A DNA stretch of 64,000 nt, from the IMG/VR virus record IMGVR_UViG_3300027741_002766, positions 1 through 64,000 of that record; one strand, given 5' to 3'. The notes below the pieces were generated by a model that saw only the letters and a list, made by a program, of their open reading frames with translations, searched no databases and had not been told where the DNA came from. Position numbers and translations under genes: made by a program. Positions 6,285-6,492 of the stretch are shown piece by piece (the first letter of the stretch is position 1; each line of letters opens with the position of its first letter). This DNA comes from a virus.

Positions 6285-6492
6285 TCCAGCGTCACTGGAT
6301 ACTCTGGTCCCAGAGGATGAGAAGTGTGATGACACACACGGGCGGTACTGTTCAAGCCTTAAACAGCGTTGGCAATACGATAACGGTCCCTGTCGAGGAG
6401 CGGGTGGAGGGTGTAAGTGATGAATAGACTAGTTAGGGCAACTTGACGAAATTTCTGATACACTATAATTACCGCCGAGGGACGTCAGAGCA
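6285..6492 (+). ncRNA. unannotated structured RNA 4 (~210 nt multibranch)
   Basis: GGCGGTA/TACCGCC and CTCTG-TCCC/GGGA-CAGAG long-range stems plus at least 5 hairpins; lies between two tRNAs. Confidence 0.65.

Follow-up and report, generated by a model that had tools for sequence, protein, structure and literature searches.

Why giant phages carry large sets of translation genes is an open question. Among described RNAs, the closest in kind to the element reported here are the species 1 and 2 RNAs of phage T4 (rnaC, 139 nt, and rnaD, 119 nt; NC_000866, 70908-71171), small stable RNAs that are encoded within a tRNA cluster, toward its end, on the tRNA strand and abutting tRNAs. Both are expressed, and their role is still unexplained (PMC9697503). 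The element at positions 6280-6492 shares this setting, a stable RNA gene in a phage tRNA cluster and on the same strand; however, both T4 RNAs are smaller and rnaC terminates in a tRNA-like T-arm, whereas our element has a pseudoknotted two-domain fold. A lead toward rnaC was abandoned: a probe given in PMC9697503 shares AACGTTCCGTC with the family, but the string lies on the antisense strand of rnaC and the family model does not match there. Run with filters off across the T4 tRNA region, this model reached at best 3.1 bits, with no match on rnaC or rnaD.

GOLLD and ROOL, which often lie beside tRNA genes, are roughly three to four times longer than our element and form multimeric cages. All three are orphan structured phage RNAs; GOLLD and ROOL, like the element, were found by covariation and are highly structured (10.1101/2024.12.08.627333). 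Rfam gave no GOLLD or ROOL match, members of the new family span 171-269 nt, and, in contrast to the cages, nothing about the element suggests multimerization. The RNA described here adds a well-defined fold of medium size to the few orphan phage RNAs (T4 rnaC/rnaD, GOLLD, and ROOL).

An RNA gene between tRNA-Cys and tRNA-Met

The window (the whole stretch of 64,000 nt analyzed here) is taken from a 108.7-kb IMG/VR contig, of which it covers the initial 64 kb; the estimated completeness of this contig, 30%, places the record with the jumbo phages. Nine tRNA genes, all on the plus strand, lie within 4.6-7.3 kb, and a tenth is found at 673-749. The 223-nt gap that separates tRNA-Cys from tRNA-Met is occupied by a structured, pseudoknotted RNA gene (Table 1), measuring 213 nt in this phage and 171-269 nt across 43 aligned relatives. 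The first-pass annotation had proposed a multibranch RNA of ~210 nt between tRNA-Cys and the initiator tRNA, at 6285-6492; comparison with relatives bears this out, with a conserved extent of 6280-6492. The same annotation had the RNA sitting under a perfect sigma-70 promoter. The perfect TTGACA-17-TATAAT is real but stands upstream of tRNA-Cys rather than directly over the RNA and, judging from its sequence, is likely the start of a tRNA-Cys/RNA/tRNA-Met/tRNA-Thr transcript. An identical promoter occurs at equal distance (97-98 nt) in two relatives (L002 and L071).

Table 1. Positions of the RNA element, its helices and joining strands, and the adjoining genes in the window
Feature	Position	Strand	Remarks
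Sigma-70-type promoter, TTGACA-17-TATAAT	6153..6181	+	12/12 match; upstream of tRNA-Cys; consensus match only
tRNA-Cys (GCA)	6201..6278	+	CCA encoded; 3' end 1 nt ahead of RNA
Whole conserved RNA element	6280..6492	+	nhmmer and covariance-model matches across full model length
P1 hairpin, TCCAG, loop CGTCA, CTGGA	6285-89 / 6295-99	+	4/5 pairs compensated
P2 hairpin, CTCT / AGAG	6302-05 / 6312-15	+	3/4 pairs compensated; loop GGTCCC 6306-6311
J2/3, near-invariant purine strand GATGAGAA	6316..6323	+	clade 2 keeps GA..GAGAAG
P3 hairpin, GTGTG, loop ATGACA, CACAC	6324-28 / 6335-39	+	compensated
Pseudoknot 3' strand and GGT	6340..6346	+	
P5 hairpin, CTGTT / AACAG	6348-52 / 6362-66	+	loop carries invariant RCC 6356-6358
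P6 hairpin, GCAA tetraloop 6372-6375	6367-69 / 6377-79	+	
Isolated tertiary pair T6376-A6383	6376..6383	+	UA 112 / CG 20, none broken
P7, GTCCCT with AGGGAC	6386-91 / 6478-83	+	5/6 pairs compensated
P7b, CG with CG	6394-95 / 6476-77	+	from RNAalifold
P8, GCGG with CCGC	6400-03 / 6472-75	+	
J8/9, conserved GTGGAGG strand of internal loop	6404..6410	+	absent in three divergent members (L083, L085, L063)
P9 stem, GTGTA / TACAC	6411-15 / 6459-63	+	arm 6411..6463 variable, dispensable
J9/8, invariant TATAATTA strand of internal loop	6464..6471	+	also reads as -10 hexamer
Single-stranded 3' tail	6484..6492	+	ends in invariant CAGAGCA; here 9 nt, then tRNA-Met
tRNA-Met, initiator-like	6502..6576	+	C1-A72 mismatch

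As first surmised, the RNA matches no named family. At gathering scores, Rfam 15 returned only tRNAs and the tmRNA across the whole window, with nothing over the gap. With E-values up to 10 on 5900-7300, the only hits inside the element were two to box C/D snoRNAs (E 4.5-5.3, 6410-6464), and one further weak hit (E 5.4) merely clips its first bases. The snoRNA hits (E about 5) are accounted for by the P9 arm, in which GTGATGA (6417-6423) opposite CTGA (6455-6458) behind a 5-bp stem constitutes the signature of a box C/D K-turn, as is usual for P9 across the family; the arm carries a distal GCAA-capped hairpin. Membership among the box C/D sRNAs is not indicated: the hits are weak, guide regions are absent, some members lack the arm, and the L7Ae-family K-turn protein (PF01248) is absent from five carrier genomes. 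RNase P RNA was likewise missing from the Rfam hits, and P7 and P8 covary freely and lack the CR-I/CR-V motifs; no Rfam match was obtained to group I introns or known self-cleaving ribozymes. Literature searches returned no description of the RNA, although a 2023 catalogue of 10,006 viral candidate RNAs (PMC10690425) may list it under a number, its text being silent on the element.

Folding energy does not set the element apart. The plus-strand fold reaches -60.6 kcal/mol, and shuffled sequences average -60.7 (z 0.02); for the minus strand, z is -0.62. The case for an RNA therefore rests on comparison rather than thermodynamics. The single-sequence minimum-energy fold uses a long helix of the first-pass annotation that relatives do not support. 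Insertions and deletions of 1 nt within the conserved core, together with lengths spread evenly over the three classes modulo 3, indicate that the element is non-coding. The same observations bear on a small protein gene on the minus strand, which might explain a median longest stop-free stretch of 65 codons, mostly on that strand. A purine-rich plus strand, however, leaves the minus strand naturally short of stop codons, the frame is broken in the window (49 codons at most), and substitutions are pairwise-compensatory rather than codon-like. The minus-strand protein is effectively refuted, and we give it next to no credence.

Family members and distribution

Through an 86-aa membrane protein encoded next to the element, 15 related phage contigs were reached. 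Six of those loci, and one more from a pattern scan, repeat the gap sequence (79-90% identity), preceded there by tRNA-Asp or tRNA-Cys. Two scans of IMG/VR with conserved motifs added ~70 loci; nhmmer located one copy in each of 77 loci, and the family counts 63 IMG/VR loci. A pattern scan of metagenome contigs yielded at least 120 matches, and 79 of the 80 loci fetched hold a member according to the covariance model. The pooled IMG/VR and metagenome set contains at least 134 distinct sequences. The gene is single-copy, with exactly one copy in the window's own record and one in each of five other records, two of which are 99-100% complete genomes (344 and 367 kb).

The covariance model found no match in PA5oct or Phosso, the nearest cultured relatives (AAA ATPase 47-50% identity), and in a blastn search of 50,697 phage records the flanking tRNAs alone gave matches. 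A 16-mer pattern scan of bacterial genomes gave, among the matches listed, only chance hits (best 12 bits), a result with no bearing on prophages or hosts. The element belongs to a family that is uncatalogued in RNA databases and found in phages.

Secondary structure and tertiary contacts

On a MAFFT alignment of 43 distinct sequences, we named 42 base pairs, with helix coordinates checked against the window sequence. Within these pairs, 98.2% of the cells are paired, compared with 81.5% for shuffled alignments and 34-49% when the pairing is slid by 1-3 columns. Compensatory changes are seen in 28 of the 42 pairs, and the covariation score is 0.474 versus 0.04 for the slid controls. RNAalifold independently recovers P1, P2, P3, P6, P7, P8, and P9, and adds P7b. 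The structure of the multibranch RNA is conserved by this measure, each of its helices showing covariation, and the local stems that had been read by eye (TCCAG/CTGGA, CTCT/AGAG, GTGTG/CACAC, CTGTT/AACAG, the GCAA-capped stem, and GTGTA/TACAC) are confirmed by compensatory changes. Individual pairs illustrate the pattern: 6285-6299 in P1 is UA in 115 sequences and GC in 16, 6327-6336 in P3 appears as all four Watson-Crick types, 6369-6377 in P6 is UA in 22 and CG in 21, and 6401-6474 in P8 is CG in 101, UA in 19, and AU in 5, with none broken. In clade 2, P7 is formed by CCTCTCTG and CAGAGAGG instead.

The resulting model has two parts. The 5' domain would comprise hairpins P1, P2, P3, P5, and P6, with the P2 loop and the GGGY strand behind P3 forming an H-type pseudoknot onto which the P5 loop is predicted to dock. 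The 3' domain would be a single long bent helix (P7-P7b-P8-P9) with a conserved internal loop and an optional K-turn arm.

Two long-range helices of the first-pass annotation have no place in this model. For GGCGGTA/TACCGCC, 92% of the cells pair, yet there is no covariation and the value equals that of shuffles; moreover, 7 of 134 sequences carry a mismatch at 6343-6474, its sole variable pair. Position 6474 instead tracks 6401 perfectly, so CCGC belongs to P8. For CTCTG.TCCC/GGGA..CAGAG, 10-14 of 43 sequences are mismatched, which refutes the helix: the 3' CAGAGCA never varies, whereas the 5' side varies and is compensated locally, and GGGAC belongs to P7. The suggested competition between this helix and a local CTCTG/CAGAG hairpin is without comparative support. 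The wiring originally drawn is thus retained in its local stems, while the two long-range helices are replaced by P7, P8, and the pseudoknot. Two further pairings were rejected. A closing helix P0 suggested by RNAalifold (6282-6284 with 6383-6385) does not covary and is mismatched in clade 2, and a K-turn between J2/3 and the 3' tail, considered by analogy to T-box Stem I, would need flanking complementary strands that are absent.

Conservation is concentrated in the core, which holds ~70 invariant positions. The constant part consists of the knotted 5' domain and P7; conservation in the peripheral arms is far lower than in the core. Between GGT and P5, relatives hold insertions of ~20-55 nt, the entire P8-P9 loop region is exchanged in three divergent members, and the P9 arm ranges up to ~75 nt across relatives, shrinking to a GCAA hairpin in L056 and L058. 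In most relatives, the 3' tail is followed by a T-run.

The pseudoknot is formed by GGGC (6340-6343), which pairs with P2 loop positions 6311, 6310, 6309, and 6307 and is followed by an invariant, formally unpaired GGT (6344-6346). Pair 6307-6343 is AU in 113 and GC in 19 of 134 sequences, with none broken, and the divergent member L020 exchanges C-G for U-A at 6309-6342. Base 6356 in the P5 loop follows pair 6307-6343 without exception (A-U-A in 112, G-C-G in 19), making it a candidate base triple in which a purine may dock on the pseudoknot helix. An alternative pseudoknot between GGY and the P5 loop fits the 6343-6356 covariation but leaves an A-C mismatch in L020; because the P2-loop pairing is compensated in that member and the P5-loop pairing is not, we read 6356 as a third-strand contact. 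Modeled in this way, the J2/3 strand would cross the minor groove of P2, as the loop of an H-type pseudoknot. The three tertiary contacts (6307-6343, T6376-A6383, and 6356) changed at least 6, 8, and 9 times, respectively, on a tree built from the other columns, although the tree of so short an RNA is rough and these counts are to be taken as orders of magnitude.

Genomic behavior and expression

Every tRNA in every locus lies on the strand of the RNA. Of 59 distinct loci, 24 have the element starting 0-4 nt behind a tRNA 3' end, and in 12 a tRNA begins 3-9 nt past the end of the element. Depending on the locus, the tRNA on the upstream side is that for Cys, Asp, Tyr, Ser, Pro, Glu, Asn, Met, or Gly, while the downstream gene varies among tRNAs of many kinds and small ORFs. 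The place in the array is itself variable, with medians of 3 preceding and 5 following tRNAs. In four loci, the RNA occurs with no tRNA across 6-14 kb; L064 carries a strong promoter of its own, TTGACG-17-TATAAT, 33 nt ahead of the RNA. Neighbors in the tRNA-free loci (radical SAM, DUF2201/VWA, and SH3 proteins) gave no functional clue. The element behaves as an independent gene that is mostly carried along in tRNA transcripts. The ORF after the RNA in L034 (from ~1485, plus strand) and L083 (from ~1305, plus strand) begins MARITSEKAV.QIGNR, which may resemble the N-terminus of the RNA polymerase omega subunit (RpoZ).

A 2017 lake metatranscriptome contains a 160-nt contig with an adapter-flanked insert of 142 nt identical to 6295-6436, and in another run relatives reach contig depths of 88-176 over 6366-6475. 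These contigs hint at expression, with DNA carry-over being possible. A TTGACG-15 nt-TATAAT match is present inside the RNA gene at 6443-6469 (plus strand). Its TATAAT (6464-6469) lies in the internal loop of the RNA and is invariant across the family, apart from TACAAT in a few members.

Proposed role and alternative explanations

The reading we favor, and hold to be probable, is that 6280-6492 encodes a stable non-coding RNA with a compact fold, from a family specific to phages, which acts in trans after being cut from a tRNA precursor. We infer that the RNA would be co-transcribed with the neighboring tRNAs from the promoter at 6153-6181 and freed by tRNA-maturing enzymes, with 3' trimming of tRNA-Cys giving the 5' end and RNase P at tRNA-Met giving the 3' end. 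During infection, the freed RNA may serve as a trans-acting binder, with tRNA or the translation apparatus suggested as its partner by the genomic setting; no partner protein, ligand, or target RNA emerged from the analysis. A single-copy gene with a pseudoknot and ~70 invariant positions, kept in at least 134 variants, implies a specific task. If the partner is tRNA or the ribosome, phages would have in this RNA a new means of controlling translation or of escaping defenses directed at tRNA, and the pairing map is precise enough for the direct design of probing, binding, and structural experiments. Cores as intricately knotted as this one are met in ribozymes and ligand-binding aptamers more often than in simple protein-sponge RNAs; to call it a plain binder may therefore be an understatement. 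There is a modest chance, well short of an expectation, that the knotted 5' core is a new module working on tRNA, either a trans-acting reader of CCA ends or a new ribozyme class acting on precursors. A CCA-end reader would mean that recognition of the T-box or RNase P kind has been reused by giant phages outside riboswitches.

T-box bulges (UGGN) and L15 of RNase P (GGU) pair with the CCA ends of tRNAs. By analogy, the invariant GGT of our element could pair with the CC of CCA, so that the RNA would bind tRNA 3' ends and sense, sequester, or protect phage or host tRNAs; we consider this rather unlikely. GGT is invariant in all 134 sequences, the gene sits among tRNA genes, and the consensus GGGTGGTAC (6340-6348) is identical to an unbroken stretch of 9 letters within the 14-nt T-box sequence AGGGUGGNACCGCG (PMC8002221). 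Its placement is also reminiscent of T-box discriminators (PMC7583486), which sit between two hairpins behind a purine string. The resemblance is nonetheless partial. The element has neither the complete 14-nt AGGGUGGNACCGCG, of which its consensus shares only the nine letters GGGUGGUAC, nor a free UGGN opening a 7-nt bulge on the 5' side, and an 8-letter match arises by chance about once per 300 such RNAs even before the many motifs compared are counted. The U of UGGN is not free but pairs internally with 6307 and is C in 19 sequences, the strand order of helix A1 is permuted (its partner comes from upstream, not downstream), and GGT may instead pair with the invariant ACC of the P5 loop. The element has neither specifier loop, terminator, nor regulated gene, and T-box model RF00230 finds no match at E-values up to 10 in the 108.7-kb record, while control genomes respond. 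The idea that an AUG in J2/3 serves as a Stem I specifier codon reading tRNA-Met was dropped because this triplet is not conserved: five members have AUA, and clade 2 lacks it. Reading of tRNA ends is accordingly kept as a minority hypothesis, of the same low probability, and does not amount to T-box membership; both RNAs are tRNA-related in context.

The remaining explanations are improbable on present evidence. A new-class ribozyme that cleaves itself, and so helps to cut the polycistronic precursor, or that performs another reaction would fit the knotted core with its candidate base triple and ~70 invariant positions, as well as a 5' boundary that falls exactly at the tRNA CCA in many loci; yet tRNA-processing enzymes already account for both ends, a tRNA cut beside its CCA would end in a cyclic phosphate, the RNA stands without a neighboring tRNA in four loci, and no Rfam ribozyme family matches. 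A free-standing small-molecule aptamer, serving as a sensor or as a sponge for a host signal, is about equally doubtful. Pseudoknot-plus-triple cores are typical of riboswitch aptamers, and the core here is of that type and far more conserved than the arms, but the RNA is larger than most such aptamers, has no expression platform or constant downstream gene, and lies among genes that yield no clue to a ligand. Marginally harder still to accept is a cis-acting piece of the tRNA operon that would serve as an insulator or processing spacer, counteract termination, or house an internal promoter (TTGACG-15-TATAAT) for the tRNAs downstream. RNA and tRNAs always share one orientation, many members have TTGAC 15 nt upstream of TATAAT, and the one variation seen in that hexamer, TACAAT, is a change that a -10 hexamer tolerates. 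However, a 15-nt spacer is poor, the -35 element is missing where P9 is short, and the putative start site falls between the strands of helices P7 and P8, which means that a functional RNA needs readthrough from upstream; the variable array position and the four loci without tRNA likewise argue against a role in cis. The trans-acting RNA released from a tRNA precursor remains our preferred reading.

Other features near the tRNA array

The phage encodes a tmRNA at 8950-9310 (plus strand) that matches betaproteobacterial and permuted tmRNA models, and a TTGACA-17-TACAAT match at 8964-8992 lies within the longer tmRNA match. Host-like auxiliary genes surround the tRNA array (5426-5707, 7245-7949 on the minus strand, 1300-2404, and 10876-13946). 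Pfam confirms FeoA and a GDSL lipase among them; translations read by eye suggest a fatty-acid desaturase, peroxiredoxin AhpC/AhpD-like proteins, and a MoxR-type AAA ATPase, whose DUF2201/VWA partner has a Pfam match only on the copy of a relative (L072).

A second conserved structured element of ~70 nt, without an Rfam match, is located at 5370-5439 (plus strand) of the window and also in L008 (961-1030), L050, L029, L036, L087, and L039. In many relatives, it lies between tRNA-Asp and the knotted RNA; here it is found 840 nt upstream, just before the feoA-like ORF. Its closing stem (GAGAGCCAC / GTGGCTCTC) and an inner hairpin capped by GCAA or TTCG both covary across the seven copies.
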